A DNA stretch of 64,000 bases from Glaucostegus cemiculus (lineage: Eukaryota). Made by a program: the position numbers and the translations under genes. The notes below the pieces were generated by a model that had not been told where the DNA came from, did no database searches, and saw only the letters and a program-made list of their open reading frames with translations. Each line of letters opens with the position of its first letter. The stretch's first letter is position 1. The stretch lies in assembly GCA_976551045.1 (NCBI GenBank), contig CDPCPM010000370.1:1426001-1490000 (forward strand). The letters run 5' to 3'. Shown here one piece after another: positions 3,816 through 63,710 of this stretch.

Positions 3816-4421
3816 ATGCAAATTCAAATTATGTAAGTCTGCAACTCTCCCCAATTCGTGATCCTTGTATGTTTGCCGTTTTTTTAAAATAAGTAAATCT
3901 TGCTTTTCCATGCAAGCTAACCTGGGGATGGGATAAGTGGGTGCCAATGCGATTCCACGAATTAACACGTATTCAAAACCGTGACTGTGTTTCACTCAAA
4001 ATTCACGTATTCTTGCTCCACTTCACTAACTGAACACTTATCAAAAACAGAATGTATAAACTAGGTATGTTGTTTGTTACGGAAAAGAGTCCAATTTTTC
4101 CTATGTTCAGGATTGCAATAGTGTCCAACAATTTAAAAGCATCAATGCATTCAAAGGAACGAGGCTACACATTTTCCTGAGCAAATAAACACGAAATCAC
4201 ACGTGTCACAGACCCTGTGCATCTGAAGCACTTATCTCGAAGAAGAGTTTAATTCACGAATACATAAATGCAGTCGAATCACAAAACACTTTTCAAAACA
4301 ACATTACAATGGAATTGCACTGAAAACAACATTGAAACACAAGGACTTATTTCCAAAATAGCCCGAGAGATGGAGTAAAACCACAGTTGGTACAACTGTT
4401 CAATAAAGACCAGTTTCTTAC

Positions 4422-4463
4422 CGTCAGTCACCGTCACCATGGTGCCCCGTCCCCACTATGTGT
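4422..4463 (-). other. IGHJ: IgH joining segment of cluster A, short, with in-frame TAG before WGxG
   Basis: Minus strand reads ac aca TAG tgg gga cgg ggc acc atg gtg acg gtg act gac g|gtaag (WGRGTMVTVTD, phase-1 donor at 4421). Confidence 0.93.
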
Positions 4464-4502
4464 CACGGTGTTACATTCTATGGACTGCATCACACAATAA
4501 CA
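4464..4502 (+). other. 23-bp-spacer RSS of J (cluster A)
   Basis: CACGGTG (4464-4470), 23-nt spacer, ACAATAACA (4494-4502). Confidence 0.9.
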
Positions 4503-5296: not shown

Positions 5297-5643
5297 ACAC
5301 AAACTGCTCAGGGTTATAGCTCAATTAAAATTGACATCACAGATGTTTCAAAATGATCCATCAGTTCATAACGAACATAGAAAATGAACACAAACCTCAT
5401 CACCTCTCTGAATATACCGTTCGTATTGAACAGGGCAAGGTATCCTGAGCTTGAATTGTAAATATAGGTGGTGGAAAACGGAAGGAAACGAACACATATC
5501 ATATCCGTGCACTGGATAGTATATGGAATGTCGTGTTAAGTTATTGAAAGGTGGTTTGTGCTCCGTTTTCAGAATGTTACCATTGTTTTAAATAATTACT
5601 CACTGTCAGTTTATGATTGAACGCTTTGGTCTTACCATCAAGC

Positions 5644-5682
5644 TATTCCTGTCCAGGTCCAGCCCCGCACTTTGTCATCGTG
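5644..5682 (-). other. Non-canonical 23-bp-spacer RSS of V (cluster A)
   Basis: CACGATG, 23 nt, ACAGGAATA directly after YYCGRY. Confidence 0.8.
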
Positions 5683-5987
5683 GTACCTCCCACAGTAATA
5701 GACAGCGGTGTCTTCAGACTTCAAGTCATTAATTTGCAGGGCGAAGATGCTGTTTGAAGTGTCTTTGGACGGAGTAAATCTGTTCTGGTATCCCGGGGCG
5801 AAGGTGTTGCTCGATGCACTTTTATATTCCATCATCCACTCCAGCCCCCGCCCGGGGACCTGGCGGACCCAGTTCATCCAGTTGTCATTAAGATCGAACC
5901 CGCTGGTTTTACACGTCAGTCTGATAGTGGATCCGGGTTTGGCGGTCTCTGCCTCAGGCTGAGTCAGCACAATATCAGAATGGACAC
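5683..5987 (-). CDS. IGHV: IgH variable exon of cluster A, intact, elasmobranch IgM VH type
   Basis: Acceptor tttcag|gt at 5988. [30 protein letters not shown]...[12 protein letters not shown]...RFTPSKD...[13 protein letters not shown], with both canonical Cys and the FR2 Trp present. Confidence 0.97.
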
Positions 5988-6156
5988 CTGAAAGTTGAAT
6001 AAAAAAGACAAAACTTTTGAGGATTAATCTTGGGACAATAGTTCCTAGGGGGGAGGGGGAGAGGGAGAGAAGGGGGGCTGGAGGGGAAGGGAGAGAGAGA
6101 CCTTAGAAACAAGTTGGTCAGTGACCTTGAGAATGTTATCCAGCAAAATCACTCAC

Positions 6157-6202
6157 GGGATATGAAAGCCAAAAATATGCCCAATGATGTCAACGACTTC
6201 AT
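6157..6202 (-). CDS. IGHV: IgH leader exon of cluster A (MKSLTSLGIFLAFIS)
   Basis: ATG at 6202, 46-nt hydrophobic exon, phase-1 donor c|gtgagt in frame with the V exon. Confidence 0.93.
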
Positions 6203-6345: not shown

Positions 6346-8367
6346 AACAGTTCCCGGAGCTAAATTGCCCCTCCCACATCGCAGCAACATTGAGACATTC
6401 CTTGATACTTAGCAACTTGTGCAGATGGACTGTACATCTCTGCACTTAACATTAGCAGGGACCCACTGCTCCTTTCACGAAGTGTCATCATTGCCATCAT
6501 CGTTATCGTTATCAACCAGGGCACATGCAGATGTCACAGAGTATCAGAATAAAAATTATGATTCAGAAGTAGCTCATGTTCGGTCCATTGCCCTGCTCCC
6601 GGGAGCCCACATTTGAGTACGATTGTTAATGAAACCGATTCAGAGCAAAACACAATGAACAGTGGCAGATAGTCAATGATGGAAAATCCCTTGGTTGATA
6701 ATGGGCACGCAGACAAGAAAGAAAACAAAACAGAAAGAGTTGCTTCCAGTCAGTTCCACATCATGTTATTATTTTCGTGATCCATGTATCTTCAAACGTT
6801 TTGGCTCTGGGAGGGTGTTGCAGTTTGCAAATTCGTTATATCCCTTTGTTTGACCTTCCTGAGTTAGTTGGTATCATAGTTAATAAGACGACAAATGGTT
6901 CGATTGAATTTCGCTGTTTCTATTGCGCAATAATGTGCTTACAATTATTCAAATTCATTCTCTCTGTCGCAGAACGCTAGACATTGATAATATGTTGAAA
7001 TGCTGCTGAAGAAATACTACGGATTAAATAGATGTCAAAGATTCCGCTTCAATTGTGTCAACCCACTTTACATGAAAATTGGCAGCAAATCAATGACTTG
7101 TGTGATCTCAGCTCTAGAAATATACAGCAGTTACAGGAAACATATAGAGTTCGGTTAGAAAAAAACAAGACCTGCAAAATTCTTTGGCGAAAAGCCAGGT
7201 CAAACCGTAACAAGGTCTAATTCAATCAAATCTACAAAGCGAGATGCATGGATATGTTTCCATTGTCCACATCTGTTAAACTGCTTGATAATCCCAGGAT
7301 GAAAAGAGCATGACACAGGCCCACAGCTGCTGACGGAAGTAACTGGACTATATGACCAGCATTCACATGAACAGATGGGAACAGGTAGAGACACAAGGGC
7401 ATACCGAAACATAGAGAGGAACAAAGATTGACTTATTGATTGACAGATTGATAGATTGATCTAAATGCCCCATCCGCCTTCGCAGCTTTAATGTCTGTCA
7501 AGTTGATACACACACCTACTGCTCCGCCACACTCTTCCCCTCCCCACGCTGCATCGGCAGTGGTGAATATCAATATCCGTTGTTCCACCCATACTCGAGT
7601 CCTGCCCAGTCTAATGTCCAGAGAGCTTGCAGTGATGATCTGCAGGAGAAATTAAAACAAATGAAAATACAAATTAATGATTGATAGTTTACTGACGCCT
7701 CGGAAGGAGATAACTGAGTAAAAAGGTGAAGGAGTGAGGCAATTCAGTTCTGTAGCGTGACGACTGGTGTTTGGTCCACCATTACTGAATACTAAAGAGA
7801 ATATTAACGTTCAGCATTAGGAAGATTTCCAATAATGTTCACGGTCAGATGGTGCTTCCATTGGCAGAAAATTCTGTAAAATGAGGAGAGTCAATCAACA
7901 TACTTCACAAAATTCTGAAGGGTAATGTGGGTGCTGGGCAGCGTGCTTTAATGATTTGGATTTCACTGGCTAAGAGGACGGTCCGGGCGAATCCTACAGA
8001 ATTATGTAAAGATGAAAAATGGGAAAAGGAACAACTGGCCTGGTTGTGACGAAAACACTGAGGAATGGGGAAAACGTACAACTCCTTAAAGAGCAGGAAA
8101 GAGTCTCATAAAATTCCCCTACGTTCTGTAATTTCATTAATCTGTGACGTGCATTTCAATTTATCAGTTGATGTTAGCATGTTCTTTTTGAAGTTGTCAT
8201 TTGTTGCTTTGATATGCAGACACGGGATTCCACTGACACCAAACATTGTTATCCTGAAGGTTGGAATATATTTTTCCTCTGATTGTATCCAACATTTCAG
8301 GAAAACATTGACCAAAATGAACAGGGATACAATCTTTGTTTATTTGGCAAAACGAAGAGAATAAAGG

Positions 8368-8418: not shown

Positions 8419-8955
8419 CACCGAAGGCAGCTGCATAGGGATTTGCATTTCTCTCTCGTTATTTCTGTCTGAGGTGTTCGGGAAATATTGATTCTATTTT
8501 TGAACTTCAGTGAACTAATCTAGGCCTGGAGCTGGTGAATTCAGTGCGTACGTAAATTAACTCATCAGTGTTTCCTCCCTGTTTTCAGAACATTTGAAAC
8601 AGGTCAGTGAAGGCACGTCGATTAGACTCAGCCCGGAACATATGTATTTTCCATGCACTTACAGTTGGTACAAAACGAACTGAATTCTCTCGGAGATAAA
8701 ATTTTATATTTAATTAAGTAAAATTGATGTCATTTGCCAAAAGACAGAAGGTTTAAAGTAACAAATCAATTCTGAATAGCCTGCAGTTGAAAGAAATCAG
8801 ACATTTCTGAATGTACCGAAATTAATATCCACTTACAGGAAGGTTTTGCAGATGTGGACTGAATGAGAGCCGACATGAGCAGAGAGGCCGCGGCCCCTTC
8901 GATATGTCGAGACACACAGAGAGAAACACACAGTCAGGCGTGCGCGCGCACACAG

Positions 8956-9379: not shown

Positions 9380-12300
9380 CAGTTCAATTAAATACGTAGG
9401 AAAACGAAGTCAAATCGGCGTGGATGATTAACCTCGACATGAGAGGGGATGTTGGGGAAACACACGGCGAAACGTCATATATTGCATAATAAAGGCGTCT
9501 GTCTGGGAATGCAGATAATCATTGAGCATTTATCAGCACAAAGGAATAGAATTATGCGGCTTTTCAGTGATATGTTTGACATAAATTCAGAATTCGCCAG
9601 TCATCAAACTGAGTAATGAGACATTCCATTGTGTCTTAGTGCTTTAAGACTGCCGGTGGCAGTTTAATATTCATTAAGGGGATCATTATTGTGGTAATAA
9701 GGGAGAACATCCTGTAAGGATTTTCAAATGAGCCGAATGGGCACAGATAAGGAACAAAAGGGGAATGAATATTTTACCGAGGGACAGAACAGGCCTTGTT
9801 GCATTGTGCAGGATATAGAATTGCAGATAGATAGGCATATCATAGAGCCATTTTAAAGTAACAGAGTAACACTAGCTGGGCCCATCCGGCCCAAGACAAA
9901 CTGCGATCTCTTCAGTGTGAGATTCCGAGAGGGAATGGGATTTTTATATAGCTTTCAGAAGATATTTTTGCGCCAGTGTGTTGATAGACTACCAGAGTAG
10001 GGACAGAACTGGACACTGTCCTAAGGAACGCAACCGATAATAAAGTGTCGCTGCGGGAACATTTTGGAGTCAATATCCACAACTCATTACATTTCAAGGT
10101 GGTTGTCGGAAGTGATCAGTATGATTCGGAGATGGAAGTTCTGAATTACCCGAAGGTTCATGACAATATCTTGAGTGAGGACGTGACAAAGGACTACTGG
10201 AGGAATTACTTGCAGAGAGGGTTACATCTGACATTGGAGTCATTTTAAAGAGAAGCTGTGAAAATTCAGGGTTAAGATCTGCCAACAACTGCGAAAGCTA
10301 AAGAAAGGAACTCCATGGTACACTGCATGTTAAGGGGTGTCGTGGATCGGATACAAAAGAAAGTCAGGCAAGTATGTCAGAGTTGTCGAGAATTTGCAAC
10401 TGGGAGTCACTTCCGTAATAGGAAAGGTGTCGGGTGTGTTCTTAAAAAGAAGCTGGGACGAGAAAGAAGCCACGAGCAGCGTCACTGGTGGACAAAATTA
10501 AAGGAAGTCCCAAAGCATTAGAAAGGATATTGAATGCAAGAGCGTAACCAAGAACAAAATAAGATCCTTAGTACAAGAAAATCTTTCTTTGCTGATCCAC
10601 ATTAGCCCCTGTTTAATGTCCGCCAAACCATATTCATATTTATGATTGCACAGTGCCGTGTCTTTTTAGGTATCAAAATTTGACTGAAATCTCGAAATGT
10701 TGTACTGGATGCGTGGTAAAGTAATATTCAGTAAATGCTTTGGTGGGTCCCAAAACAATAGTGTAATAGGTAACAGGTTGAAGAAATTATGCAGTGTTTA
10801 AGAAGAACAAGTCCATTAGCAAGGTCAGGCTGTTGCATGGCAGGAATAGGAGAAGGTTTCTTACCCAACCCGAATTTAGTTTGACACTGGATGCTTGACA
10901 GGACAGGGAGATTAACTCGGGGCATGGATCTGTTTTTGTGAATATGATATGACGTCTATTACAGAACATGGTCGATGGATGGTCAGGACAGGCAACTCAA
11001 TGTCCTGGGGTACAAATGCTTCCGGTATGAGAGGTGAGGTAAGAGATGATGAGGTGAGGTGGATTAGAACATTGAATTGGAAGAACGTCATAGCAGCACC
11101 AAGAAAGCATATTCCAGGGGAAATGTCCAGCAAGGTTACGTAAGTCCAATTTAGAAATATGAAAGGGTTGGTCACTTTGATGTGATAATACAACAGCCTC
11201 TCAGCCCCCAGTAACTAATGTCCATAAGTTCCTAACATGCACGTCTTTGGAATGCAGGAGGAAACCGGAGCACCCAGTGCAAACCCACACAGACACGTAC
11301 AACGTATAAACGTACGAGAACGTACAAACTCCTTGCCGACTGTGGGCGGATTTGAACCCGGGTCGCTGGCTCTGTAAGCAGTATGCAAACCAATATGCTA
11401 CCGGCCCTGTATCTACCGGCACTACGATAAAAGGTGAATTTAACTTTCATAGTATTGACTTGGAATGCCATACTATTATTTAACGGGAAGAACCAAATTT
11501 TATTCGGTGTGCATGAGAAGCGTTTCGGAAGACCGTCCTTCTGGAAAAGGGGCCTCATGGAGGCCTTCTGTTCGGAAATAAAACTGGGAAAGTTGCTGAA
11601 ATGTGAGTGGGAGTGCACGCTGGGACCAGTGATTACAAATTCTATTTGATTGAAGATAATTCTGTGTCAGGATAGGACTGGTCCACGAGTTTAAGTCCCA
11701 AATGGATGCAAATGTAACTTCGATGGCATTGGAGAGAAAGTTGAAAAAGTTAGTTGGGGAACGTTGTTGGCAGGTAATGGTACATCTGACAAGAGGGAGG
11801 CTTTGAATGGTGAGCCTGGAATATTTCTGTTTGAGTGGAGAAGGCTGTCGGAGAACATTGGCTAATGAGGAATCTTTTGGCTCTGGACAAGAGGAAAGAA
11901 GGAACCGCATGTCAGCTGTTGGCATCTGGGATTAAGAGAATCGGCTGAGTGGTATAAGGGATGTAAGAATACATTTAAGTCGGAAATTAATATGGCTAAT
12001 ACAAGCAGGAAATATCGTTAGCAGAAAAGGTAAAATAAAATCTTAATAGATTATCTGAATCTTAAAAGCAAAAGTATAAGCACGAAGTGCCTTTGTCCAC
12101 TTGAGTCGCAGTGTGGAGATAGAGGTGAGGTCTTCAATGAACATTTCTGTCTGTACTTACTCTGAAGAATATTATGTAAGTTCCTGACTTCAGGAAAGAA
12201 AACAATGATGTCGGAAAACATATCGACATTAAGAAGGCGGGGATGTTGGCGTTCCTGAAGCATATAAAGGTGAGTAAACCCCTGGCGTCTGACCAGGTGT

Positions 12301-13800
12301 CAATAGGGAGTTGTGGAAAACAGCAGAGAAGATTCCTGGGCCCCTGGAAAGATTTTGTTTCTTGATTAGCCACGGGTGTGGCAGCAGATGACTGGAAGAT
12401 AGCTGATGTTGCGTCTTTTATTTGAGAAAGTCTGCAACGTCAAGGAAGGGAATTACAGAAACGCAGAAAAAGCCGGAGAATTTCAATGGTTCAGGCAGCA
12501 TCCATGGAGGGAAATGAACGATCGACGGTTCGATAATTAACTCAAGTAAAACCTGTTATCACATCTGTTATTTGGGAAAGAAATAATGGAAAACGGAAAT
12601 AGATTATCTTGTTTCGCATCCGAAATAAAACGTGTAATATTAGGGAGCTGTATGGAACCATCAAACTGTCTTCCTGAAATAAAGGCAGTCGTCAAATCAA
12701 TGAAACTAAACACCGACAAGTACCCTGGATCAGAGACCCTGAATACGAGTGCCCTGAAGGAAATGACTGCTGACACAGAAAGTCTGTGGATTATAATCTG
12801 TGAAAATACCTCGATGTTCTGCATAGTGTCCAGAAGAGATTCCAATCTACATTGAGAGCTTCAAAAAAAGCAACCAGGATTCGGAGAGGACAGGCAACAT
12901 CTGTTCTGGGGAAAATACTGTAATCCATGAGTGAGGACATTTATTCCCTGTGGTTATATGAAAGGGAACACATGTGCCGAACACATTTGACGGAATTCAA
13001 CCAGCAGATAGTGGAGCTGAATTTGCTTTCTAATCTGCGTTTGGTTTTGCAAACCCATTCGGCAGATTGCGCAACAGGGCTGACTGTTCAAGGTAACAGT
13101 TTGCAGGGTTGTGGGATTCACCGGTGTGGATTTGGGATTTTTTTTTTTAAAAGAGAAAAATAGAATCCTGACGTTTGCTGACTGGAAATCATTATCATGT
13201 GGTGCACAGCAATGTCAGTCGTAATATCTCAACTAATTGCAACCCGTATTCATGACCATGAGGTGCACAAATATTGGGAATTGTTACATGGCCCTGATGC
13301 AACCGTATTGTGAGATGGTTTTGATCCCCATATGCAGAGGATGGTATTCTTTATTTCCAGACAGTACAGAGGTTCACCAAGTTGATTCCTGCGCCAATGG
13401 GTTGACATATAAAATAAGCTTTTAAATTCGTGCACAAAACTCACAAGAGTTTAGAAGACGAAGAGATGATCTGATTGAAATATGTCCGATTCTGAAAAGG
13501 ATTAACGACGCACGTGCTGAGAGGAAGTCTCCTCAAGTGAATACACAGAACCAAGGGCGTTGTTTCAGAAAAGGCATCGACGATGAAGGCGAAGATAAGG
13601 CAGGATTCTGTCACTGAGCGTGACACTTTGGACTTCTGTACTCTCGGGAAATATGGATGTGGAAGCATTCAACACATACAAGTTAGAGTCTAATGGAAAT
13701 TTGAATCACAAGGCAGGCAAGGAGTAGGTGGACTAAGACGGTAGGTGGAACTGAGGCCAAGAGGCAGTGGTCTGTTCGAGGCGTGGAGTAGCCCGGAGAG
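9380..13800 (+). mobile_element. Patchwork of highly decayed CR1-type LINE fragments
   Basis: Endonuclease- and RT-like remnants around 10.9-12.4 kb and 12.6-13.8 kb, similar to the reverse complement of the minus-strand CR1 copies. Many stops. Confidence 0.5.
11205..11420 (-). mobile_element. tRNA-derived V-SINE/HE1-like SINE
   Basis: B-box-like GGGTTCAAATCC followed by GGAGTTTGTACGTTCTC and GGGTGCTCCGGTTTCCTCC core on the minus strand. Confidence 0.75.
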
Positions 13801-14339
13801 GTGCACTAATCTCTTCTACACTAAAGTAAATTTTCCTATTGTTTGTTTTCCATCTCATGACGCTCTATACAGATGTATGACCAGTTCATCTCCCACGGTC
13901 TTCTGCAAAAATCTGCCAGCACTTAACATTAAATGAGAGAACGTCGCCGTTCTTTTTTTTTATTTCCTTCTTAAGTTCGGTCCCTTATAATTTGGTGCCC
14001 TTTGTATGAGACGTGACATGCACAAATGCCATATTTTAATGAGATTCAATGTCAGAATTATGATGAACGAAATAATGTTTCATGGAACGGCTCCAGAGAA
14101 ACGGGGGGAAATGCTAATTTCGCCCGTCAAGCCTGCCCCACAATTCAATTTGACCATCGGTGGTCGTCAATTTCTGGCCCCTGACCCTGCTATTACTTCT
14201 GAGCTCAAGATCGAAAACTGACACTTTTCTAAATATAATTAATGATTTGGTGATTGATTTCACTCCTATTCCCACAGCGTCCATCCAGTCAGCACTGGCC
14301 TTCTCTCCACACTCTCGGAACAGTATCATGAAATTGTTC

Positions 14340-15330
14340 ATAAAAATGTTCCTTCGGGTAACCAGTAGGAACACGTGTTGACGAATGAGAGTTGTGTCTC
14401 TGGGCAGATTTTGGAGTCACTGCTTCGAAATCACCATCGCTGGCCTTCTCTCCCTGCGCAGCGGACTGGAAGCAGCTCATTAATTTCTCTGCACGGAATC
14501 CACAGGTGTTTCCGTTCAGTTACAATGTGAGGTCCTGCTCGTGTCGGACTGTGAAATGTTGGAGTCTGGCCACAGAACATGACAAAAGGGTGAGCTGAGT
14601 GAGAATTAAAATAAAATTAAATACTAAGTATTGAAGTATGTTTGTAAAATTGTAAGTTGTATTACCAGTGGCCAAACGGATCAAGAGACATGTGGAGTTA
14701 GCACGAGGGATCGAATTTGGAGATCCGCCATGTATAAGTTAAATGGGGAAATAGGTTCTAGGTGTCGATTGGCCATTCTCATTATGTTTCGTATGTTCCT
14801 AACCGTTATTGATATCAATGACATCTCTGTAGATTTGAGACCAATCAACTCCCAATGCGTTCTGCGAAAGATAAATGGAACAAAACATTAAACAAGACTA
14901 AAATTGTCTTTCATTTATTGACAACACATATTTCTTCGAAACTTTTATTATTGCACGGATCTGTACATCGAATTATCAATAGTAAAGCTTTATAAATATG
15001 ATTCCATGAGAACTGCATTGTGAAAAATTTGATGGCTAATGGAATTATGTATATCATTCTCTATCCAGCGAAATTCTGCAGCTCTCCTTTAAATTACGTG
15101 GCCGGAGAACAACATGTCACTGTCAGCTCAGAATGTAACTGAAAGGAAACACCTGTGGATTCTGTGCAAAGAAATCACTGTGTTGTTTCCAGCCCGCTTC
15201 TCACAGAGCGAAAGTCAATGTTAGTGAAAAGTACACCTCAAGATAAAACTCTGCCCAGCAACAGATCTCTCATACTGCCGGAGCTGGTTCTAATTGGTTA
15301 CCTTGTGCGTCATTCTGATTGAAGTTTTAA
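14340..15330. repeat. Inverted-repeat pair with arms at about 14340-14575 and 15095-15330
   Basis: Reverse complement of 14458-14524 matches 15134-15200 at about 57/67 by hand count. A paralogous pair lies at 62.76-63.71 kb. Confidence 0.85.
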
Positions 15331-16708
15331 TGTTATAAATTCTGAGCAAGTGGACCCTGGTGGTTGGGATTGCTTGGGATGTGACGTCACGACTACAATG
15401 GGTTTCAAAGACTCTAAAATTCTAGATTAGGCCCAAATTTAGTGATTACCTGACCCATAAACACCAAGGAACTCGGGTGCTGGGAATGACTGAGAGTCAT
15501 ACACAACTTAGTTTTCTTTCCTGCTAAGCGAAGTCCGGATGTGTCCACAATCGTCTGTCATCCTCACATTAAACCTGTGTTAATGGAGTGAACTCCCCTT
15601 TGTGAAAGTTACTGGCTGAATGCAAGCAGATCAATGTCAACATTTTAAACATCACTGGAATGAACACAGGAGCGTGTGTTCCTGATCATGAGGACATAGG
15701 AATTATACTCACCGACCAATGTTGAGTTCCGGGTGACACGATGTGACTTCCTGAACTAAACATCTCTTCCCCACCCATGACTGTTAATTTGACGGGAATG
15801 TTTCCTTTTCCCATATTCTGTTTTATGTCCGTACCTGTATTGCTATTAAGTGTTAACAATTTCATTGTCTCCAGGAATTACAAATTACGTTGCATTCTGG
15901 GTCCATTTTATCATTTAGTTGATTTTTAAAATTAAAATATACTATTTTCTGCCCATGATACCTATTGAAACATGGTCACGAATTCATGTTTGAGCTTACG
16001 TGGAATTCCCTCTTTAGTCACTCCGAATGCAGTGACATCACAGGTGAGGTACAAAGCGATCTGCATTAACACTGTTCCTTGAAATACTCCACAGCAAAAG
16101 AAACAGTTGATATCAGCAGAGAAAAGAGTTCACGATGCGAATTCATTGGATATGTCCAGGGCTGGGTATGTCTATTCTGGACACAGAGCCAAATTCCCTT
16201 GAATCGTTTCCATCAGATACGCAGGGACAGCGTCACGGAGCTCCCACAACTCCCCGTTGAGTTCTCCCGGGCAATGGTTAACACATTCTGTTCAGAGTAA
16301 GCCTACTGCACATGCACTATAACACAATAGACGATGTGGCATAGATACCGAAAAGCAGTTCTTCCAAATTGTCCTATGAATCATCTGCAAGAATTGCCTA
16401 CATGGTAAACCTCCAACACTGTGCTCCTAAAAACATTCCCAGGGCAGGGAGAAAAGCTTCATCTATCCGCCTCATCAAACTCTCCTTGGGCAATTGCAAT
16501 ATGGGTCTGATTCACAGTTTTCTTAATTCTGAGCACTGCATGCACGCTTTACATATTACTGCATAACTCATGCCGTATACTCCGATCAACTCTGCACAAG
16601 ACCCGAAATTCAGGCCGAGACTTCACTTCCTTAGACATAGACATCCAAGTACTGCGTGGTAACGTTGATCAGAAACATGGCATGTAGGCGATCAAATGGG
16701 GGGAGTGA

Positions 16709-16739: not shown

Positions 16740-17544
16740 CTGTAGAAAAAATCTCCCTGCACCCCATTTGTTGTGTTTCCATTCCCGATGACTGCTAGGG
16801 ACCTTTACTCAATCTGAGACCAGATTGAATGCCCATTTTATTTCCCGCTGACTGATAGAAGACCATCTAAAACATTCACCATTGTTGCTGGATAGTCTGA
16901 AGATTTGCATCTCGCCCTTTCTAAATCTGTTCTGCGTTCGCGGGGACAATTTTATTCTGTTTCTGACTCTTGTGTTCTAATTTGGGACTTATATTTCTGA
17001 GATTAGATACACCAATGCCGACGTCTCGTCCAGCTGTGTCCCGGGTTTAGCGAGATACATTCTCAAAAGTTAATTATTGATTTTCCGCAAATGACCAGAG
17101 AGGTTATTTCAAGAATATTGGCAGCTGGTACAAAATGAACTGAAGTTGCTCGGACAGTAACATCAGACTTTATCTTCTGCAAACAGACAAGCTGTGATTT
17201 ACATCCAATAGGAGAACAGGGAACATTAAGATGGCTGTAATGCGAGTTGCCCAGATTGCAGCAGTATGGAGCCACTGTGGTGTGCTGAAATACGTCGGTG
17301 ATCAGAATGCAGTGAAATATGCGGCAATGAATGCCCAACAAGCGCTCAACTCCAAATCATATATTTTTCATTGAGGAACATTGTTGAATAAATATAAACG
17401 TGATCTGGTAACGAATGACACAAGTGCACATATTGGAGTCCATTAATTCAATATTTTCATATGACGTAGATTCCCTTTCAATAACCTGCCAACTTAGGGG
17501 AACGGATTTGACGACATTATATCGCTATGTTTATACTGAGAACT

Positions 17545-17856
17545 TTTAGTCCAGTTTTTTCTTCATGTTGTTTTTTTTTTCCCAAATGTTTCTGTTTCGT
17601 TTACTTTATTAGATATATTGTTATATTTTTCTTATTGATTTGAGTTTTTCTCTTTCTTTTTTTTTCAAATTTAAATAATAAATCGTTTTCATTCCTTCCA
17701 TTCATATTATATTCATTTACAAAGAGACCGTTGGATCTACATTTTTTAAAATATTTTATTGTTCTTTATGAGTACCTATGCTATGATTACTATCCTGATA
17801 TTTGTATTACAGGTACAAATACTGATGCTATGTATTAATCTGTATTAATAAAAAGA
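17545..17856 (+). mobile_element. L1/Tx1-like 3' UTR fragment
   Basis: T-rich tract ending AATAAAAAG, similar to the reverse complement of 36.75-37.05 kb and 63.7-64.0 kb. Confidence 0.45.
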
Positions 17857-21099: not shown

Positions 21100-22700
21100 A
21101 GTGTTATAAAGCACAGAAACAGACCCTTTGGCGCAACAGGTTCATGCTGACCAAGATGCCCATCGAAGCTAGTCCCATTGGCTAGTGTTTGGCCCACGTC
21201 CTCTCTCAACCTTTCGGATCTATGTACCTGTTAAACTGTTTTTTAAAAAATTGTTGTTGTATCTGTTTGAACCACTTCCTCAGGCAGTTCATTCCATATA
21301 TATCCCAACCTTCGTGTAAAAAAGTTGCCCCTCGAGTTCCTATTAAATATTTCCCCTCTCACCTTAATCATCTATGTATTTTTTTTAAATTCCCCAACCC
21401 TGGAAAAGAGACTGGTGCATTCACCCTTCCTAAGCCCCTCAAGATTTCATACACAGTGATTACACAAATACTAATTAAATGCTAGAGGACTGCTATCCTC
21501 CTCAGGAAACTGCCCTTTCAGTGGAAGTATTCTTCATCAGATCCCCTCTAATTCTCCTCCTACCCCTTACCTTAAACATCTGCCGTCTGATTATAGGCAT
21601 TTCTGCAAAGGGGAAACATTTCCAATTATCTCCCCTGTCTATACCCCTCATCATTCTGTACAACTCATTCAGGTCGCTCCTCAGCTCCTATGTTCCATGC
21701 CCTGGCTAATGAAGTCAAGTAGCCGAATTCTTAACTATTTGTGCTGTTGCCTACAGGAATCCTTCGACTTGCACATCACTGTCTCTCCGTTCCTCATTAC
21801 TTCTGACAGTCCCACCATTTATTGTGCATTACGTACCATCTTCAGTGCTCCCAAAATTCATTGGAAATAAGATTTCTTTATTAGTCACATGTACATCAAA
21901 ACACACAGTGAAATACATCTTTTTTGCGTAGAATGTTTGGGGTCAGCCAGCAGGTGTCGCCAAGCTTCCGGAAGCAACATTGCATGCACACGACTTCCGA
22001 ACCAGTTGTGTCTTTGGAATGTGGGATGAAACCGGAGCGCCCGGAGGAAACCCACGCAGTCACAGGAAGAACGTATAATCTCCTTACAAACAGCAGCTGT
22101 ATTTGAACCAGGGTTGTTGGCACTGTACTAGTGTTATGATAAAAGCTGCGCTACCGTGCCTCACATTTTTGAAGAATGAATTCCATCTGACATTACTCTT
22201 TTCATCTTGCCAACTGATCAATATTGTTCTGTAGCCAAAGACTGACCTTCTCCATAGCGACAAACCACAAATCTTCATATCATCTGGAACTTACTGATCA
22301 TACCTCCTACATTCACATACAGACTGTAAATGTGTATATCCACATGCAAAAGTCCCAGCTCCAGTTCCTGTGATACACCACCGGGCACAGACTTCTAATC
22401 ACAAAAGAACAACATTCTATCCTCTGCCTCTTATGAACAAGCAAATATTGGATCCAGTTTGTCAAGTTGACTTGAATCCCATGAGATTTTACCTTTAAAC
22501 CAATCTTCGATATGGCACCTTTTCAAAGGTCTCACTGAAGTCCATGTAGACTTCATCAACTGCACTACGCTCGATGAATCAAAATAGACAGACACGATTT
22601 CCCCGAACCAGACCACGCTAACAAACTCTGATCAATCCCTGTCTCTCCAAGAGCAGATTAATCCTGTCTTTAGAATTATTCTTATAATTTAGCTACCCTT
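21100..22700 (-). mobile_element. Decayed CR1-type LINE fragments interrupted by a SINE
   Basis: Similarity to the other CR1 3' and RT remnants in the window. Confidence 0.5.
21865..22160 (-). mobile_element. V-SINE/HE1-like SINE
   Basis: Minus strand has GGCACGGTAGCGC...GGTTCAAAT...GGGCGCTCCGGTTTCATCCCACATTCCAAAGAC...CATGTGACTAATAAAG. Same family as 26281-26577. Confidence 0.8.
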
Positions 22701-26280: not shown

Positions 26281-26577
26281 GGACGGCACGGTAGCATAGT
26301 CGTTAGCACAAAGCATTGCAGCACCAGCAACCCGGGTTCAATTCCCGCCGCTGGCTGTAAGGAGTTTCTACGTTCTTCCAGTGGGGGCTCCGGTTTCCTC
26401 CCATATTCCAAAGACGTACATGTTAGGAAGTTATGGGCATGCTATATTGGCGCCGGAAAGGTGGCGACACTTGCGGGTGCCCCCTCTCCCCCTACCCAAT
26501 CACTATGTGAAAGATGCATTTCACTGTGTGTTTCGATATACATGTGACTAATAAAAATCTTATCTTATCTTATCTTA
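26281..26577 (+). mobile_element. V-SINE/HE1-like SINE, near full length
   Basis: A-box-like GGCACGGTAGCATAG, B-box GGGTTCAATTCCC, core GGCTCCGGTTTCCTCCC, and (TCTTA)n tail. Confidence 0.8.
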
Positions 26578-31760: not shown

Positions 31761-31830
31761 ATGCACGCGCCTGGAAATGGGCCGGTCTTCGCTATTTATT
31801 ATTCTATTCTCGCGGCTTTCGGTGTTCCAG
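31761..31830 (+). CDS. GPR139/GPR142-like class A GPCR, exon 1 (MHAPGNGPVFAIYYSILAAFGVP)
   Basis: ATG at 31761, TATAAAT at 31697-31703, phase-1 donor cag|gtaac. Encodes the first half of TM1. Confidence 0.85.
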
Positions 31831-33529
31831 GTAACATAGAGTATGTGATGAACAAGCAGTCAATGAATGTTTATCTGCGCTTCGTTTCAAAAATATATTC
31901 TCAATAGATTTGTTAATTCTCATATTCAGCCGGTTGACAATGCAATCTCTACAGCGCTCCAGTTTCGCACTGTTCGGTCCTTTTGGTTAAAAATACGGAT
32001 TATGCTAAGATCAATTAGGCAAGAACGTAGGTTCTGAAATTTAGATTATATTGTTTTAAAGGCTAGTTTTTTAATGTTATGGTCTGATGTCGACGTGTTT
32101 CTTTCAATTATTGTTCTGTCTAACATCCCTGTAAATGCCATTGTTAGTTTGTTTGTTCCTTAAACTTCTTGGATTTTCAGTGCATTGCAAGGATAGGTCT
32201 GCATTTTGCATAGTTTGTTCTATTGTGCTCGTTAAGCGGAAAACAATGCCACCTAACATAAGAAAATAACATAAATTCCCTTACTATACTGAACTCTGTG
32301 ACTGTGAATGTTGATCTCATCACCTAATATTATTTTCAGACTCAGCTTCTTTTTCCGTTTGTCTCTCCGCCCATGTTCACTGGCCTGCATTTACGGTACC
32401 CACCACTGCCAGTGAATTAATGTTCTATTATTGCCTTTTGCTGCCCATCTATAATATCATTATCTGTTGTAATTAATTATGCATGCCTGATTATTTAACC
32501 GATATAGGCATTTATTACTGTTGTATATTCATTTTTTATATCAGTTTACATGTTATTGAATTTGCACTGAGTTTGACGGTCATTGCTTGTCACCAATGAG
32601 AGGAACGATAGAAACTATAATACGTACACTTTACTCCCTTATCAAGTGCAGTTAAATGTCGGAGTCAGTGCTGGTAATGAGCTGACATATTTTTACTTGG
32701 GGAGGTAAGATCGGCAGTACTCATCAACAGCGACTTCATTTGGTGAAACCCATTGTGACACAACCACAGTCGTTCAGAAATTCGTGTCTCCTTCTCAGAC
32801 CTGGATACTTCATAATCCCAGTGCAATACAGTGCTGTTCGCTTTTCCAGTCAGCTGTTCATCTGTATCTTTGAACGAGCTATTCATTCTGTATCTTTGAG
32901 CGAAGAATAATCTATTATTGGATGTAGTGACCTAATTACCCTCCGTCAAAATCGACAGTCCTCCGAAACAACGCAGGGAAAATTAACAGCTCTGGGAATC
33001 AATGGATGTTTCCTCATGTTGACCAGGTGTCGCCAGCCGCCGCAATTTCCCTAATCGCAGGGTTCAATGCAAATCAGCATCTGAGCCGATTAGTCCTGTG
33101 TCCACTGTCATGGACATGTTGTGTGATACTGTTCGTTCAAGGTTTTCCGTGTATCTTTATTGCTCCTGGTAATTGTTTCGAAGTAGTTTCCGTAATATCT
33201 TTCTTTCTGTACACATTTTCTCTGCTCCGGAATTCCTTCTTGCAACTTTACGAACTGGTAAGTTTTCCCTCCATAATTAATATTGTTATGCCAGATTTTG
33301 GTACATCAGTTGTTCAGTAATTGTACCATGCATGGGGATAAACATTGTATATTATTCTACATCAGACAATCGCTTATGTTTGTTAAAAGCAGAAATGCAT
33401 ATCCATAAAAAATGATTAGATTAAGGCCCGAAATTTATTGTCATTCAGTGAGATTTCATATGTAGCTCATCGAAGCAGATAAAGTAGCAGGTCGATTATT
33501 ATTTGCTTCATCTCTCCTGTTCCTTGCAG

Positions 33530-34437
33530 CCAACGTGGTGACAATTGCGATTCTGTACAAGGGAAGGTGTGGTCTCTCGTCATGTATCACTCGCTACCTG
33601 GTATTCATGGCAGTGGCGGATTTTCTGGTCATCATCATGGCTGTGATATTAAGTCGGCTTCGGGCTATTTATTTCCGGTTTACTTTATTATCCACGACTC
33701 CGGGCTGCAGTCTGGTAATTGCGCTAAGCTCCGCCTCCAAAGACATATCCGTGTGGTTAACGGTTGCTTTCACCTTCGATCGTTTCGTTGCCATTTGTTG
33801 CCAGAGGCTGAAACTCAAATACTGCACCGAGAAAACCGCGGGTGTCGTTACTGGAACAGTCTGCTTGCTCGCCTGCTTGAGAAACGTTCCCTTTTACTTT
33901 GAATTTGAACCGATGTACGTTATTGATAAGGTGCCCTGGTTCTGCAACATTAAAGATATCTTCTATACCGCAGTCGCTTGGAGAGTGTATGAATGGCTGC
34001 ACCGGATGTTAAACCCATGCGTTCCCTTCCTCCTGATTTTGCTGCTCAACATTCTGACCGTTAGACACATTCTGGCGGCGAGCAGAGCCCGCAGGAGGCT
34101 GCGGGCCCAGACCAATGGAGACAAGCAGAGTGATCCGGAGTTGCAGAGTCGGAGAAAATCCATCATTTTACTCTTCGCCATCTCGGGTAGCTTTATCCTG
34201 CTCTGGTCGACGGATGTTGCAAATTTTCTCTATGTACAAATAACCGCCAATAACTATGTCAGTGGTTCTAATTTCTACGACCCAAAGTTTATCTTCCAAG
34301 AAGGCGGATATATGTTGCAGCTGCTCAGTTCCTGCACGAACACATTTATCTATGCGGGCACGCAGACTAAATTCAGAGAACAGTTAAAGAATACGGTTAA
34401 ATATCCTTTCAATATCATCAGTAAATGGTTTAAATAA
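33530..34437 (+). CDS. GPR139/GPR142-like class A GPCR, exon 2 (spliced product about 325 aa)
   Basis: Acceptor ttgcag|cc gives GVP-A-N in TM1. Motifs YLVFMAVAD (TM2), SVWLTVAFTFDRFVAIC (TM3 DRF), PCVPF (TM5), RRKSIILLFAISGSF (TM6) and SSCTNTFIY (TM7). Open to TAA at 34437. Confidence 0.93.
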
Positions 34438-36720: not shown

Positions 36721-36739
36721 TAATCAAGAACACTATCAA

Positions 36740-37560
36740 TTATCTTTCTTTCTTTCTCAATCATTTTATTAGTTACAAAACAACACAGGTTAATATATAG
36801 CATCAATGTTCACACATGTATTACAAAGTGATCAGGAAAACAATCATAGCATAGGTGATCATAAGAAACAATAAAGTATAATATATACAAAATAAATCCA
36901 ACGGTCTCTTGGTTGATGAATATAGTAGAAAAGATAAGAAAAAATTTATTATATAAATGAGAAAACAAAGAGAAAATCTCAAATCAATAAACGTATTGTA
37001 ACAATATAAACTAAACTAAACAGAAAATGTTTGAAAAAAAAAACAAAAATGAAAGACAGCTATCTTTTTTCAATAGAAATGGAGCAACATTATATCGTCA
37101 GCTACGTTTCTTTAAATAAAAAAAAACGGATATTGAAAGGGAGTATACATCATGTGAAAATATTGAATATATGGACTTTCAAACATCTTCAAATTTAAGC
37201 GAAGGATCAACAATACCACTCCTAATTTTTTCCAAGTTCAAACATGATATAATTTGAGAGAAACATTGAAATGTAGTAGGGGGTATTGGATCCTTCTATT
37301 TAAGCAGAATGGTTCGCTTGGCCATTAATGTAACAAAGGCCATCATACGGTTAGCAGAAGCACATAAATGACCAGACCTTATCCACGGTAATCCAAAAAT
37401 TGCAGTTATAGGATGGGATTGTAAACCAATCGTTAGTACATTTGAAATAATATTTAAAAATGTCTTTCCAGTATTTTTCCAAAAGAGAACAGGACCAGAA
37501 CATATGTATCAAAGAGGCCTCATTCGATTTACATCTATCGCATATAGGATTTCTATGGTC
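36740..37560 (-). mobile_element. L1/Tx1-type LINE 3' fragment
   Basis: Minus strand encodes PICDRCKSNEASLIHMFWSCSLLEKYW (ORF2 C-terminal CCHC knuckle), then a T-rich UTR and A-rich tail. Confidence 0.75.
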
Positions 37561-38024: not shown

Positions 38025-39099
38025 ATTTGGGGAATCCAGTCTCTTTTCATCTTCAGCTGTTTTACAGATAATGTGATATTTGCTTCCAGAATTTGCTGGT
38101 ATTTCATTGAATTCATTCTTCCCTCTACCAGTGTAATGCTCCCCGTGTCACTAACTGCAGCACAACGCAAAGCCATGATCAATCCAGCCCCGGTCTTAAC
38201 TGTCAGAATGCTGTTCTTTTCATGAAATGCTGAACCTATTTTTCTCCAAAGTGTCCTGCGCCCACACCACAAAAATCAACGTCAGAAGGAACAGCTAAAC
38301 AAGCCTAATGCATTTTGCAAACAAGTGCTGAAGAATGATGCCGTTAAAATATAATATTTTGGCAGCAATACGAAAATGTATGTTTGGAGAAAATACGGGC
38401 AAATTTCGTGAAAAGAATAGTTCACCAACTGTTAAGCACGGGTTTGGATCTATTATGCAGTGGGTTTATTTTGCAGCCAGTGGCACGGGAAATGAATTCA
38501 ACCAAATACCAGAAGATTCTGGAAGCAAACAGCACACCATCTGTAAAAAAAAGATGAAGGTGAAAAGATGGTATCTTCTAGAACAGGATAACGATTCTAA
38601 ATACACCTCAAGATCCATAGTGGACTGCCTAAAGAGGCACAAGCTGAAGGTTTTGCGATGGCCCTCAAAGTTCCCTGGCATAAACATCATCGAAAATCTG
38701 TGGATAGACCTCAAAAGACCAGTGCATGCAATACGGCCCAAGAATCTGACAGAACTCGAAGCCTGTTGCAAGGAAGAATAGGCTAACATCCCCCAAACAA
38801 GAGTTGAAAGACTGTTATCTGGCAGCAGAAAACGTTTGCAAGTTGTGATACTTGACAAAATGGGTGTTACTAATTCCTGACTCTGCTGAGTGTCCAAACT
38901 AATGCTTCGGGCCCTTTTCATTTTCTTGTTATTTTGAAACTGTAGCTGATGGAAATAAAACAGTAATATTTCTTAAAATATTAAATAAATGTGTCATCTT
39001 TAACTTTATACCTTTTGGAAATCAGGTCATTGTTTTCGCTCAGCTATTCACAGTAAAAGAAATATTTACCAACGGTGCTCAAACTTCTGCATGCTACTG
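38025..39099. mobile_element. Degenerate Tc1/mariner transposon with an inverted internal duplication
   Basis: + ORF has PTVKHGFGSIM...QDNDSK...WPSKFPGINIIENLW...LTELE (DDE domain). The - ORF at 38009-38272 repeats TVK.G.G.IM...GRMNSMKYQQIL. A TIR-like end ...GCTACTG|TA sits at 39099. Confidence 0.85.
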
Positions 39100-46870: not shown

Positions 46871-47130
46871 CTGTGAAACATAAATGAAAATCAGGGCCGC
46901 TTCATCAACAGGAACAGAAATGGAGATGTTTCTTTTCGGCTCTAAATAGCATAGGATACATTCCTGGTATGGAGTGTTTGGTGTTTAACCACTTTCTCTC
47001 TCTGACCAAAGACTAACACCAAAGGTGGAAGGAGAAGCTGTGCCGTGGGTTGTCCTGCTGTCAGTGAACGTCTACCTTGTACTGTATTGGGCACTTATAG
47101 TGAGATATGAAACAGAAATGAGTCTCTTAC

Positions 47131-47440
47131 CTTGAGTGATGCTGATGTTTCGGCTTTGCATGTCCTCTTTATGAACGACCTGACAGGTGAAGACTGAACC
47201 TGCGAACCACTCTCCGGCTGCGAATGTTACCTGGCTTGTCGCGCAGAATCTCCCGTTCACCTCAAAGGAGGGATAAGTGACGACACCTGAATTCAGCGGC
47301 CGTCCATTCTTCAGCCAGTTTACAGTGAGTTGTGCTGGCCGGAATCGGCCATCGAACACACGGCTGTCCTTTCTTGCTCCTTTTTTCTTCCTCATGGGAA
47401 TTCACAGTGATGATGACGTTTGGAGGAAGCACCACTCGAT
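47131..47440 (-). pseudogene. IGHM: IgM Cmu2 exon, cluster B, with two 1-nt deletions
   Basis: 310 nt. DRVVLPPNVIITVNSHEEEKRSKK / TAVCSMAD / RPAQLTVNWLKNG...FTCQVVH...SRNISITQ occupy three different frames. Donor g|gtaag. Confidence 0.9.
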
Positions 47441-48376
47441 CTTGATGAAAATAAAGAATTAAAATTTCTCTTGAAATGCAACCGATTGTTAAGGAATAAA
47501 GCGATTTGTTTGCAGAGAATTCACTCCGGAAACAAAGAGAAAATTAATTGAACTTTCCTTTCCCTTAAAGTAACTTCTCTCCATTTCAGTTCAGTCATGC
47601 AGCTTGCAACTCACTTCACCGTCATGGACCTATGAAGCTGCAACGCAACTGTTGACCTACCAAGGTGCTTCAAAAAGTGCTGGTAAATGGATGTACTTTA
47701 GTTAAGTATTATATTGTCGGCATGGAAATGATGGGCCGAAGGTTCTCTTCGTTAACTGTACATCCCCCGGTTCATATAATTCTAAGGGTCCCTAGTAGCT
47801 CTTAATAAGGTAGTTTCAACGGCTCACTGTGTTGGCCAGATCATTGATCTGATTTATCGTTGGATGGATAGGATTCTCCCGAATTATTATGGATGTGTCT
47901 GTAATGATATTACACATGCTCACTTTTTGAACTTACTGCCAGAAAAAAAAACAAACAACATGTTTGCTCTTTATCAAACCCGGTCAGTGTCTTACACAAT
48001 TCATGGATCACTTCTCCTAAAATCGCAAGAATTGAGGTCAGTTACTAAATAATCCTGGGTCTCTTATCCATCTGCACTGGAATAAAATTTGACTGTTCTA
48101 TCTTCTATTTCCACTGCTTCTTTAAGGCACATGTCGTTATAACTGTGAACAATGTCCCAGATGCCATATTAATGTTCGCTGTGTGTCCTTCACTTTGCCA
48201 GTTATATGTAAATGACATCTGCGCGTGTTTCACTGAATGGTGTCAGCTCAATCTGCAATAAAAGAGGAAACTTAACGATGCATTAGGTCAAATACGAATA
48301 TTTTTCTTTCGAATTTGAGAAAACCCCACACTCTCTGCAAAACACGCGGCCTTTCTTGAAGTACCCAGACACTCAC

Positions 48377-53900: not shown

Positions 53901-53996
53901 GCAAAACTGACGAACCTGAACGAATTTCTACAATTACCCGGAAAACAGAGTTAAATCCAAAATAGAACAGATGAAGAATAAGGACTCCTTCCTTAA

Positions 53997-54044
53997 CGTC
54001 GGTCACCGTCAGCTTGGTGCCCTCTCCCCGGTAGTCAAGGTAGT
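53997..54044 (-). pseudogene. IGHJ: IgH J segment of cluster B (Trp to Arg, splice donor lost)
   Basis: YLDYRGEGTKLTVTD followed by g|TTAAG instead of g|GTAAG. Confidence 0.92.
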
Positions 54045-54821: not shown

Positions 54822-55124
54822 TTTCGCCCACAATAATAGACAGTGGTGTCTTCCGTTCTCAGGTTCTTCACGTCCACGGCGAAAATGTTGTTTAAACTGT
54901 CAGTAGACGGAGTAAATCTGTTCTGAATCTCCGGGGCGTAGTGCCCGTAAGAAGAACTGTGGTATACAAGCAGCCACTCCAGCCCCTTACCGGGGACCTG
55001 ACGAGCCAAGTGCATCCAGTAGTTGCTGAGAGAGAACCCGCTGGTTTTACAGGTCAGTCTCAGAGAGGCCCGGGTCTGCCGGTCTCGGCCTCCGGTTGAG
55101 TCAATCTGACATCAGAATGGACAC
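54822..55124 (-). pseudogene. IGHV: IgH variable exon of cluster B, frameshifted
   Basis: [15 protein letters not shown], then a 1-nt deletion near 55069 relative to the cluster A V, then [23 protein letters not shown]...YYCGR. The FR2 Trp is replaced by Leu. Confidence 0.93.
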
Positions 55125-55285
55125 CTGAAAGTTCAGTGGAAAAGAACCAAAGAACCTGAGGATTAATCTTTCGCCAATGATTCGCCAATGATGTCTAATT
55201 TCTGAGAAAAACAACATGCTGAGAGGAACAGAGTGTGACAACGGATTCAGTGCCGATCCGAAATTTGTCTAACAGAATTACTTAC

Positions 55286-55331
55286 GGGAAAAGAACGCCA
55301 AAAACAGGCTGTGTAAAGTCGCCGACCACAT
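55286..55331 (-). CDS. IGHV: IgH leader exon of cluster B (MWSATLHSLFLAFFS)
   Basis: ATG at 55331, 46 nt, donor c|gtaag. Confidence 0.9.
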
Positions 55332-62190: not shown

Positions 62191-62759
62191 CTCTTCTTTA
62201 TTTTTTAATGTTGTTCCCTTTACATTTTCCATATCATAGTACTCTATGCAGATATGAGACCAGTAAAGCTCTCATTGCCTTCTGAAAGAATCTGGAAGTG
62301 CAGTGTTTCGATAACAGAATGGTATCGTTCTTTCTTTTTCATTTCCCGTCGTAAATTTTGTTCCCTTTAAGTTGTTCCCATATTGTACAACACCGGCCAT
62401 CATTAAATACCATATTTAATATCATTCCATGCGCAAAATTAGTATGAATCGAAAACTGTTCAGTGGAAAGGTTCTCAGAAACATGGGGAAAGCAGGAAAG
62501 TCGGCCATCCGGCCTTTCCAGCCTGTCTCACCCTTCAATTTGATCCTTGTTGACAGTGCAAATTCCGACCTCTGTTCCTGCTTCGTCAAATTATCCCTCT
62601 GGCCCCAGGAACTGAGTCTAACACGTTTATGAATGCACTTAATGATTTGTAATTGACTTCACTTCCATTTCGACTCAGACCATTCAGTCCAGAGTGGTCT
62701 TCAGTCCACAGAGTCAGAGCAGCAGCGTGACATTGTTAATCATAATTATCCATCTGTTC

Positions 62760-63710
62760 ACCAATAGCGACGTTTGCTCACGGTTTGAGAAATGTGTTGC
62801 TGGGCAGACTTTGGAGTCGTTGGCTGGTAATCACGAGCCTGGCTTTCTCCACCTGAGCAACCGGCTGGAAGCAGCTCATTATTTTCTCTGCACAATAGAC
62901 AGAGGTGTTTCCGTTCAGTTCACCGGACCGAACATGAGGGAGAGAGGTGAACTGAGTGAGAAATAAAATAAAATTAAATGAAAAATCATTGAATATCTTT
63001 ACAAAAGAGTTAGAGATGTTTACAGGGGCCAAGGTGATGTGTGGAATTAGCATATGGGACTGAATTTGGACGATCCTCTCTGAATGTTGGATGGTGCACT
63101 AGTTTCGTGAGGCCTATTGGAAATACAGGCCCCTCGAACCCAATCAGAAATTAGATTACCTCACAAAGTTTCTGATGCTCCTTGCCCATATTTACATCAG
63201 CGGCATACCGTATTGGTGTGAAAACAGTCAAACTCGCATTGCCTTGTCCAAAACTGCAATGGGGCACAATATTACACAGGCGAAAACCTGTGTTTCATTT
63301 ATTCACAACTCTTACTTCCCCTGAGCTTTTATTATTGCAGTGCTCTGTCCATATGATTATCAAAGGGGCTTTTGAATGTGGTTGCAAGAGAAATGTATTG
63401 TGAAAGGAGAGGTATTTAATGTTATTATTGCATTTACTTTTCCAGCCTCCCACGCTCAGATCGATATCTACTTAAAATTCTGTGGCCGGAGTCCAAATTT
63501 TCATTGTCAGCTCACAAAGTAACTAAAAGGAAACATCTGTGAATTCTGTGCAATGAAATTAATGGACTGTTTCCAGCCCGCTGCTCAGAGAGAGAGAGAG
63601 CTGCCGTGGGTGTATTGGACCTAACAAGATAAAATATCTGCCCAGCAAAAAATTACTAATATTAGCATTAAAAGTTCTAATTGTTTACCTCGTGCATCAT
63701 TCACATTGAA
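62760..63710. repeat. Inverted-repeat pair paralogous to 14340-15330
   Basis: CTGGAAGCAGCTCATTA...GGTGTTTCCGTTCAGTT is shared with 14466-14521. GTAACT.AAAGGAAACA.CTGTG...TTTCCAGCCCGCT is shared with 15135-15198. Confidence 0.85.

Follow-up and report, generated by a model that had tools for sequence, protein, structure and literature searches.

Introduction

To our knowledge, the IgH enhancers described so far are situated either within the J-C intron or on the 3' side of C, and not 5' of V. The mammalian E-mu is situated in the J-C intron and represents a compact module in which an E-box adjoins ETS sites. The catfish enhancer Emu3' is found directly 3' of the mu gene IGHM1, and its core has two variant octamers and a muE5 site, i.e. 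it makes use of an E-protein site (PMC1800861). The mammalian 3' regulatory region (3'RR) lies 3' of C-alpha; its arms of approximately 3 kb around hs1.2 are reported to be very alike within a species and unlike between species, and mouse and rat carry hs3 once per arm (PMC3068965, PMC9936319). Furthermore, a composite ETS:E-box motif has been described as enriched in mouse endothelial, blood and muscle enhancers, where it drove reporters (PMC5295818). Cartilaginous fish organize their IgH genes according to a V-D-D-J-C cluster plan, and shark B cells are reported to rearrange only one or few of 15-200 IgH clusters, for which the rare assembly of a promoter-enhancer complex at each cluster has been proposed as the cause (PMC2435157). 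A literature search, made mostly among papers accessible without subscription, revealed no paper naming a shark IgH enhancer of the kind discussed below. Term searches of the available texts found the word 'enhancer' absent from PMC12227049, PMC4279169 and PMC5192425, while it occurs once each in PMC3308330 and PMC4034164, in neither case regarding shark IgH.

The element described here was found in a window of 64,000 nt (the whole stretch of DNA analyzed) from Glaucostegus cemiculus. Judged from its sequence, it may work like an IgH enhancer, yet it belongs to neither the Emu3' nor the 3'RR family. With Emu3' it shares an E-protein (muE5-type) site, which reads CAGGTG/CACCTG in two of the four cores and is another E-box in a third. 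However, unlike Emu3', it is located 7-9 kb 5' of V and about 24 kb past the TM exons of the previous cluster with a GPCR gene in between, it is devoid of a conserved octamer, and it is doubled in inverted orientation. The presence of inverted duplicates at an IgH locus is reminiscent of the 3'RR, and the left core is here likewise flanked by old inverted copies (blocks X and X' below). In contrast to the 3'RR, the arms are about 0.24 kb long, 57-79% alike and not homogenized, and the pair lies 5' of V and encloses a spacer that is conserved at background level (69.8%). The compact combination of E-box and ETS sites resembles E-mu, from which the element differs by its position outside the J-C intron. 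Three of the four cores have the same GGAA-R-CANNTG spacing as the ETS:E-box motif and thereby a putative binding site, but the motif, which PMC5295818 describes in mouse endothelial, blood and muscle enhancers, is not above chance in the window.

Results

Two IgM clusters and a GPCR gene

The window harbors two IgH clusters, both on the minus strand. Family searches yielded V-set matches for V exons at approximately 5.7-6.0 kb and 54.8-55.1 kb and C1-set matches for exons at 47.2, 46.7 and 42.3 kb. Each V is followed by D and J segments with recombination signals, all less than 2 kb away, and mu chains form the leading group among the solved-structure matches of the last C exon and its tail. 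The two V genes and the GPCR gene are located as follows:

5668..6202, minus strand: leader and V exon of cluster 1 (leader ATG at 6202), the nearest candidate target
54825..55331, minus strand: leader and V exon of cluster 2 (leader ATG at 55331), a frameshifted pseudogene
31761..34437, plus strand: two-exon rhodopsin-family GPCR gene (7tm_1 match), an alternative target

The V frame of cluster 1 is open and its V recombination signal (5640-5670) is weak, while the J segment (4420-4465, minus strand) contains an in-frame TAG immediately ahead of the J tryptophan. Cluster 2 is a pseudogene: its damage (53950-55331, 48280-48620 and 47060-47440, minus strand) comprises frameshifts in V and CH2, the J donor is lost and reads TT, and CH1 is shortened and without its first cysteine. 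Some of the indels in the clusters could be caused by assembly errors. The GPCR gene (exons 31761-31831 and approximately 33530-34437, open frames) is situated between the two IgM clusters and is convergent with cluster 2, about 5 kb beyond the TM exons of the latter (39.3 kb). We take it to resemble the GPR139-like genes that are often annotated in shark genomes.

Several other features were noticed in the window. A coding-looking relic is common to both clusters (9988-10254 and 61230-61525, plus strand; 43% amino-acid identity over 46 residues); it has no Pfam match and presumably recalls the end of a GIY-YIG (Penelope-type) endonuclease. An inverted duplication (38042-38117 and 38491-38568, 83% over 78 nt) is found inside a relic of a Tc1-type DDE_3 transposase, and a short interspersed repeat, which we assume to be V-SINE-like, has copies in opposite orientations at 21867-22160 and 26285-26563.

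Geometry of the inverted pair

The initial annotation had described two arms that are inverted copies of each other, lie upstream of the leader and recur at the second IgM cluster. All of this was borne out by alignments, which delimit the arms, their constrained cores and the surrounding block as follows:

14337..14577, plus strand: left arm of cluster 1 (L1, block A)
15094..15322, minus strand: right arm of cluster 1 (R1, block A', inverted), with weak likeness to approximately 15354
62736..62945, plus strand: left arm of cluster 2 (L2), core at 62854-62920, with lost E-box and inner-side deletions
63478..63709, minus strand: right arm of cluster 2 (R2), core at 63521-63587, truncated by a repeat insertion from approximately 63702
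14455..14521, plus strand: constrained core of left arm 1
15137..15203, minus strand: constrained core of right arm 1
13269..15328 versus 61650-63715, no strand assigned: 2.1-kb block common to both clusters (BLAST, 63%)

In a profile alignment of the two clusters, the arms of cluster 1 cover 229 aligned columns with 516 nt between them and reach a profile score of 93.8, compared to a best score of 16.7 in 25 local shuffles. Single-sequence local alignments recovered the pair in cluster 1 (212/339 columns, score 168 versus at best 44 in 100 shuffles) as well as in cluster 2 (129/201 columns, score 99 versus at best 39 in 100 shuffles). The pair is positioned 8.1-9.1 kb upstream of the leader in cluster 1 and 7.4-8.4 kb upstream in cluster 2, and three shared blocks found by BLAST make it collinear with V in both clusters. 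The strong likeness that had been claimed for the center of the arms was also recovered, with 15134-15200 aligning to the left arm at 57/65 columns.

A search with the arm profile revealed no fifth arm copy within the 64-kb window. In metagenome contigs, where shark DNA is not expected, a degenerate core pattern had 0 matches, and of 131 pattern hits obtained with the V exon 0 were confirmed; these blanks carry no information. The next best match (E 0.052), at 6736-6760 near the V1 promoter, is not kept in cluster 2 and was rejected. No RSS was found in the arms by a recombination-signal scan. An inversion running past the outer arm ends was likewise rejected; the flank profile had no match right of R1, and one of the two tests was narrowly passed (38 versus a shuffle best of 35). 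The DNA outward of R2 is incomparable, because a repeat inserted at approximately 63702 truncates this arm. This AT-rich repeat exists in three copies in the window (17437-17846, 36731-37177 and 63702-64000), the third being the one in R2. In cluster 1 there is no fold-back symmetry up to the center of the spacer, 103 of 200 shuffles scoring at least as high, and in cluster 2 such symmetry is marginal (9 of 200).

An old rearranged duplication

As revealed by two-cluster profiles, the 'spacer' enclosed by the arms repeats the DNA to the left of the pair in rearranged form. The following blocks were identified with these profiles:

14115..14286, plus strand: block X, outside the left arm
14588..14772, minus strand: block X', inverted copy of X, first part of the spacer
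13843..13990, plus strand: block Y (best local match 13843-13910)
14796..14950, plus strand: block Y', direct copy of Y in the spacer (best local match 14796-14869)
62505..62685, plus strand: block X of cluster 2
62945-63120, inverted: block X' of cluster 2
62215-62289: block Y of cluster 2
63178-63253: block Y' of cluster 2

The scores of 49.5 for X/X' and 27.5 for Y/Y' exceed the shuffle best of 16.7 (25 shuffles), a null that refers to the inverted orientation only. The blocks are ordered Y X A, then X' (inverted), Y' (direct) and A' (inverted), and the layout is the same in cluster 2. The profile matches thus indicate that the arms are part of one local duplication of approximately 0.7 kb with rearrangement, in which Y X A is followed by X' Y' A'. 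Template switching in replication would give such a rearranged duplication in a single event.

Over the four blocks, 51 sites are split by copy, 8 by cluster and 4 crosswise; on the single-sequence arm alignment the corresponding numbers are 21, 2 and 2. The prevalence of copy-split over cluster-split and crosswise sites implies that the local duplication is older than the cluster duplication. It further shows that the arms diverged independently, with no homogenizing conversion since the cluster split. Hence, the initially proposed analogy to the 3'RR is not supported with respect to a maintained palindrome.

The same data bear on the idea of a 1-kb MITE with the arms as its terminal inverted repeats, and on that of a palindrome whose retention would serve to form cruciforms or hairpins, as has been suggested for the 3'RR. 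Arm length and spacing would suit a MITE, and the whole unit, when folded as single-stranded DNA, pairs back onto the cores (-145.7 kcal/mol, z -8.3, reached by 0 of 20 shuffles). This folding, however, only restates the inverted repeat, because any inverted repeat would fold in this way. Moreover, the sequence enclosed by the arms duplicates the left-arm flank in rearranged form. Copies of the host flank would not be contained in an inserted MITE, and the arms can therefore not be its terminal repeats. Likeness is lowest at the outer arm ends (57%), and the independent divergence of the arms is the opposite of the pattern described for the 3'RR (PMC3068965). The arm ends fade out and no target-site duplication was seen by eye, which at the age of the element speaks neither for nor against a MITE. 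We regard this explanation as largely refuted and very improbable. The inverted orientation is probably best read as a by-product of the old rearranged duplication, with the palindromic shape being incidental.

Conservation of the core

The nature of the spacer as a rearranged copy is a new finding, and it supplies an internal control for conservation. Blocks X and Y are 55% and 54% identical between copies, respectively, and both 67% between clusters; the outer arm shows 57% between copies and 69% between clusters, whereas the 67-nt core reaches 79% and 84%. The between-copy baseline with unrelated partners is 36-48%. Invariant columns make up 44/67 in the post hoc chosen core versus 148/424 elsewhere. 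Of 72 non-overlapping 80-column windows covering approximately 7,900 aligned columns, the two cores have the highest values (0.84 and 0.80), the lower of which is equaled by the best V-exon window; this comparison comprised 10 of 12 BLAST pieces, merged to 8 blocks, two short pieces of 76 and 101 columns being excluded. The initial annotation had regarded the arms as conserved elements. This applies to a core of approximately 70-80 nt, which is unusually well kept and more conserved between clusters than the neighboring DNA (84% versus 67-69%), as had been expected for a functional element. It does not apply to the outer arms, which with 68-69% between clusters are no better than the flank (68.5-69.8%), and the spacer equals the background as well (69.8%). 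In the J-C intron, compared over roughly the half distal to C, no window exceeds 0.71. A non-coding window 0.85 kb upstream of the leader (7039-7118 and approximately 56110-56230) shows 75% identity between clusters; it ranks among the best non-coding windows after the cores and is a possible proximal element.

Because the core was chosen post hoc, it was defined on one arm pair and tested on the other. The core from the right arms, tested on the left arms, gave 55/66 (p 0.006), which drops to 55/79 (p 0.13) if the deletion in cluster 2 is scored as mismatch; the core from the left arms, tested on the right arms, gave 66/79 (p 0.0025). Within the 2.1-kb block, permutation resulted in p 0.019 for the best window and p 0.005 for the second best. 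None of the 67 core columns carries a cluster-specific shared change, hence arm-to-arm conversion after the split is not the explanation. The cores are neither CpG-poor nor GC-skewed, so that CpG and GC content do not explain their conservation either. Private changes in the core amount to 3 in L1, 4 in R1, 7 in L2 and 4 in R2, each of 67, numbers too few to show a faster core decay in the pseudogene cluster.

It might be argued that the core is a neutral relic, produced by chance, by an old arm conversion before the split, or by patchy conversion among many IgM clusters. The post hoc choice, the best-window permutation value of 0.019, the one cross-check that is non-significant when gaps count, and the damage in both clusters would fit such an origin. 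However, the same 67 nt changed slowly on both time scales and in both arms, the two cross-checks yielded p 0.006 and 0.0025, and an old conversion cannot raise the identity between clusters. We therefore consider a neutral relic distinctly unlikely.

A further alternative is that block A derives from an ancient dispersed repeat, e.g. as the remnant of an old SINE or DNA transposon whose central domain is well kept, and that it was passed on with the duplications and possibly co-opted. The window is rich in repeats, and the shared block at 8440-8810 (59136-59513 in cluster 2) has a third copy at 16902-17200 (E 1e-9); it is probably an old repeat, and its third copy demonstrates that a block shared by the clusters can be a repeat. 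Against this origin, the 64 kb contain no fifth arm copy while other repeat families have several copies there, and the search for Pol III A and B boxes yielded no ordered pair but scattered one-mismatch matches. Moreover, a repeat origin alone would not explain slower change after insertion. This explanation appears quite unlikely.

Purifying selection on approximately 70 bp in both arms is the simplest reading of these comparisons, which are between two clusters of one genome, and we regard the element as probably under selection. Given the pseudogene state of cluster 2 and, in cluster 1, the stop in J together with the weak V RSS, any constraint may be past.

Coding, RNA and splicing potential

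The element is non-coding and lies 7.4-9.1 kb from the IgM leaders. The 24 read-through frames of the block, its cluster 2 partner and the flanks gave no Pfam match above cut-off, the best sub-threshold match being DUF3778 (E 0.08, 24 frames). Rfam returned no match at gathering level and one bacterial match (E 1.8) outside the arms, and the RNA fold of the cores is not beyond shuffles on any of the 8 strands (z -1.41 to +0.95).

Small exons can show conservation upstream of the acceptor AG, and the core could be a splice acceptor region plus a mini-exon of 21 nt, both belonging to a non-coding or germline transcript that lacks annotation. At the core end, the series CAG, 21 nt, GTGAG is indeed found in L1 (14503, plus strand) and R2 (63539, minus strand), and the conservation reaches approximately 50 nt upstream of the AG. 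However, two of the four arms lack the donor, and L2 has GAG in place of CAG. The pyrimidine tract is interrupted, the two arms are oriented toward opposite strands, and no host gene is evident. A mini-exon is hence scarcely probable.

Motifs in the core

In L1, the invariant parts of the core are CTGGAA (14466-14471), TTTC (14484-14487), TGCAC (14490-14494), TGTTTCC (14507-14513) and AGTT (14518-14521). The individual motif sites are:

14400..14408, plus strand: CTGGGCAGA, a sequence of 9 nt that lies outside the core and is shared unchanged by all four arms
14503..14513, minus strand: ETS:E-box-type site GGAAACACCTG in left arm 1, in the motif form of PMC5295818
15145-15155, plus strand: ETS:E-box-type site GGAAACACCTG in the right arm 1 core
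63529-63539, plus strand: ETS:E-box-type site GGAAACATCTG in the right arm core of cluster 2

In each core, two GGAA cores are invariant; they are located on opposite strands at a distance of 42 bp. The ETS core that had been pointed out in the initial annotation is present as [AC]GGAA[AG] at the same place in all four arms, and GGAA[AG]CA, found in 31 of 955 window tiles, yet occurs twice in every core. The three E-boxes reported earlier were found again at 14503-14508, 15150-15155 and 63534-63539. In these three of the four arms, the inner GGAA runs directly into the E-box with the ETS:E-box spacing GGAA-R-CANNTG, while the E-box of L2 is lost and reads GAGGTG (62902-62907). A second ETS:E-box near-match, one base off, exists in both left arms. 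Across the window, the ETS:E-box pattern shows no enrichment, with 4 matches compared to 1.7 expected and with 13 of 100 shuffles attaining this number; it was chosen after inspection of the sequence, and three of its four window matches are the related arms.

Other binding sites were sought with sequence patterns for RUNX, IRF, EICE, ISRE, octamer and CTCF. The RUNX-like sequence claimed before was not recovered, as TG[TC]GG[TC] is absent from all four cores. Likewise, the suggested PU.1/IRF input found no counterpart, with neither EICE nor ISRE in the four arms and an IRF half-site in one of them. Octamer, EBF and NF-kB sites are absent from the four cores, and an octamer variant ATG.AAAT occurs only in R2, outside the core. 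The additional suggestion of a boundary role gained no support, an exact-match search with a single CTCF core pattern having found none in arms or spacers. A CRE-type sequence TGACGTCA is located at 15383-15390, just outside R1; in cluster 2 the matching place is occupied by a repeat.

Discussion

Starting from the observed geometry, duplication order, excess conservation and motifs of the inverted pair, we propose that it contains a selected, doubled ETS/E-protein enhancer module serving each IgM cluster, a reading that we hold tentatively and at slightly less than an even chance. A double-stranded transcription-factor module of approximately 70 bp would have been doubled when the old local duplication with rearrangement turned Y X A into Y X A X' Y' A', an event preceding the duplication of the IgM cluster, and both copies would then have been retained, presumably by purifying selection. 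Accompanying each IgM cluster, the element would act as its distal enhancer. In B-lineage cells, both cores might be bound by factors of the ETS family and by E-proteins, the doubled module might contact the V promoter 7-9 kb away, and this contact would open that single cluster for transcription and recombination. The inversion need not matter in such a mechanism; two copies would simply double the sites. Where clusters are arrayed in tandem, an element that lies 5' of one of them lies at the same time 3' of its predecessor. The V side is favored here, because the distances are 8 versus 24 kb and the GPCR gene intervenes on the other side.

Some observations speak against a B-lineage enhancer. 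The E-box is lost in one of the four arms, the cores are free of octamer, EBF, RUNX and EICE sites, and PMC5295818 presents the ETS:E-box motif as a mark of endothelial, blood and muscle enhancers, not of B cells. The comparison is, moreover, one of two clusters of one genome. It is conceivable, although unlikely, that the cores were selected as a regulatory element for another target or cell type, namely the GPCR gene, or as a general blood, T-cell or endothelial enhancer that was duplicated with the tandem unit. The evidence from conservation is blind to the target, the open-frame GPCR gene starts at 31761, 16.4 kb from right arm 1, and is transcribed away from the element, and an enrichment of ETS:E-box sites has been described for enhancers of endothelium and blood (PMC5295818). 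Moreover, elasmobranch IgH clusters have been reported near TCR alpha/delta (PMC12227049). On the other hand, the V promoter is half as far from the element as the GPCR gene, and the element is collinear with V in both copies via three shared blocks.

Returning to an enhancer for the IgM clusters, a more general version would be that in cartilaginous fish every IgM cluster carries its own IgH enhancer, in the form of an octamer-free ETS/E-protein module that lies upstream of V and was doubled by an ancient rearranged duplication, with cluster choice limited by its occupancy. We consider this generalization rather doubtful. If true, the one cluster among many that is opened in a B cell would be set by limiting occupancy of the module. 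In this regard, a candidate of approximately 70 bp with specific, mutable sites makes the model of exclusion by rare assembly testable. Finally, if the element is an enhancer, it would show where IgH control was located before the single-locus arrangement with intronic and 3' enhancers.
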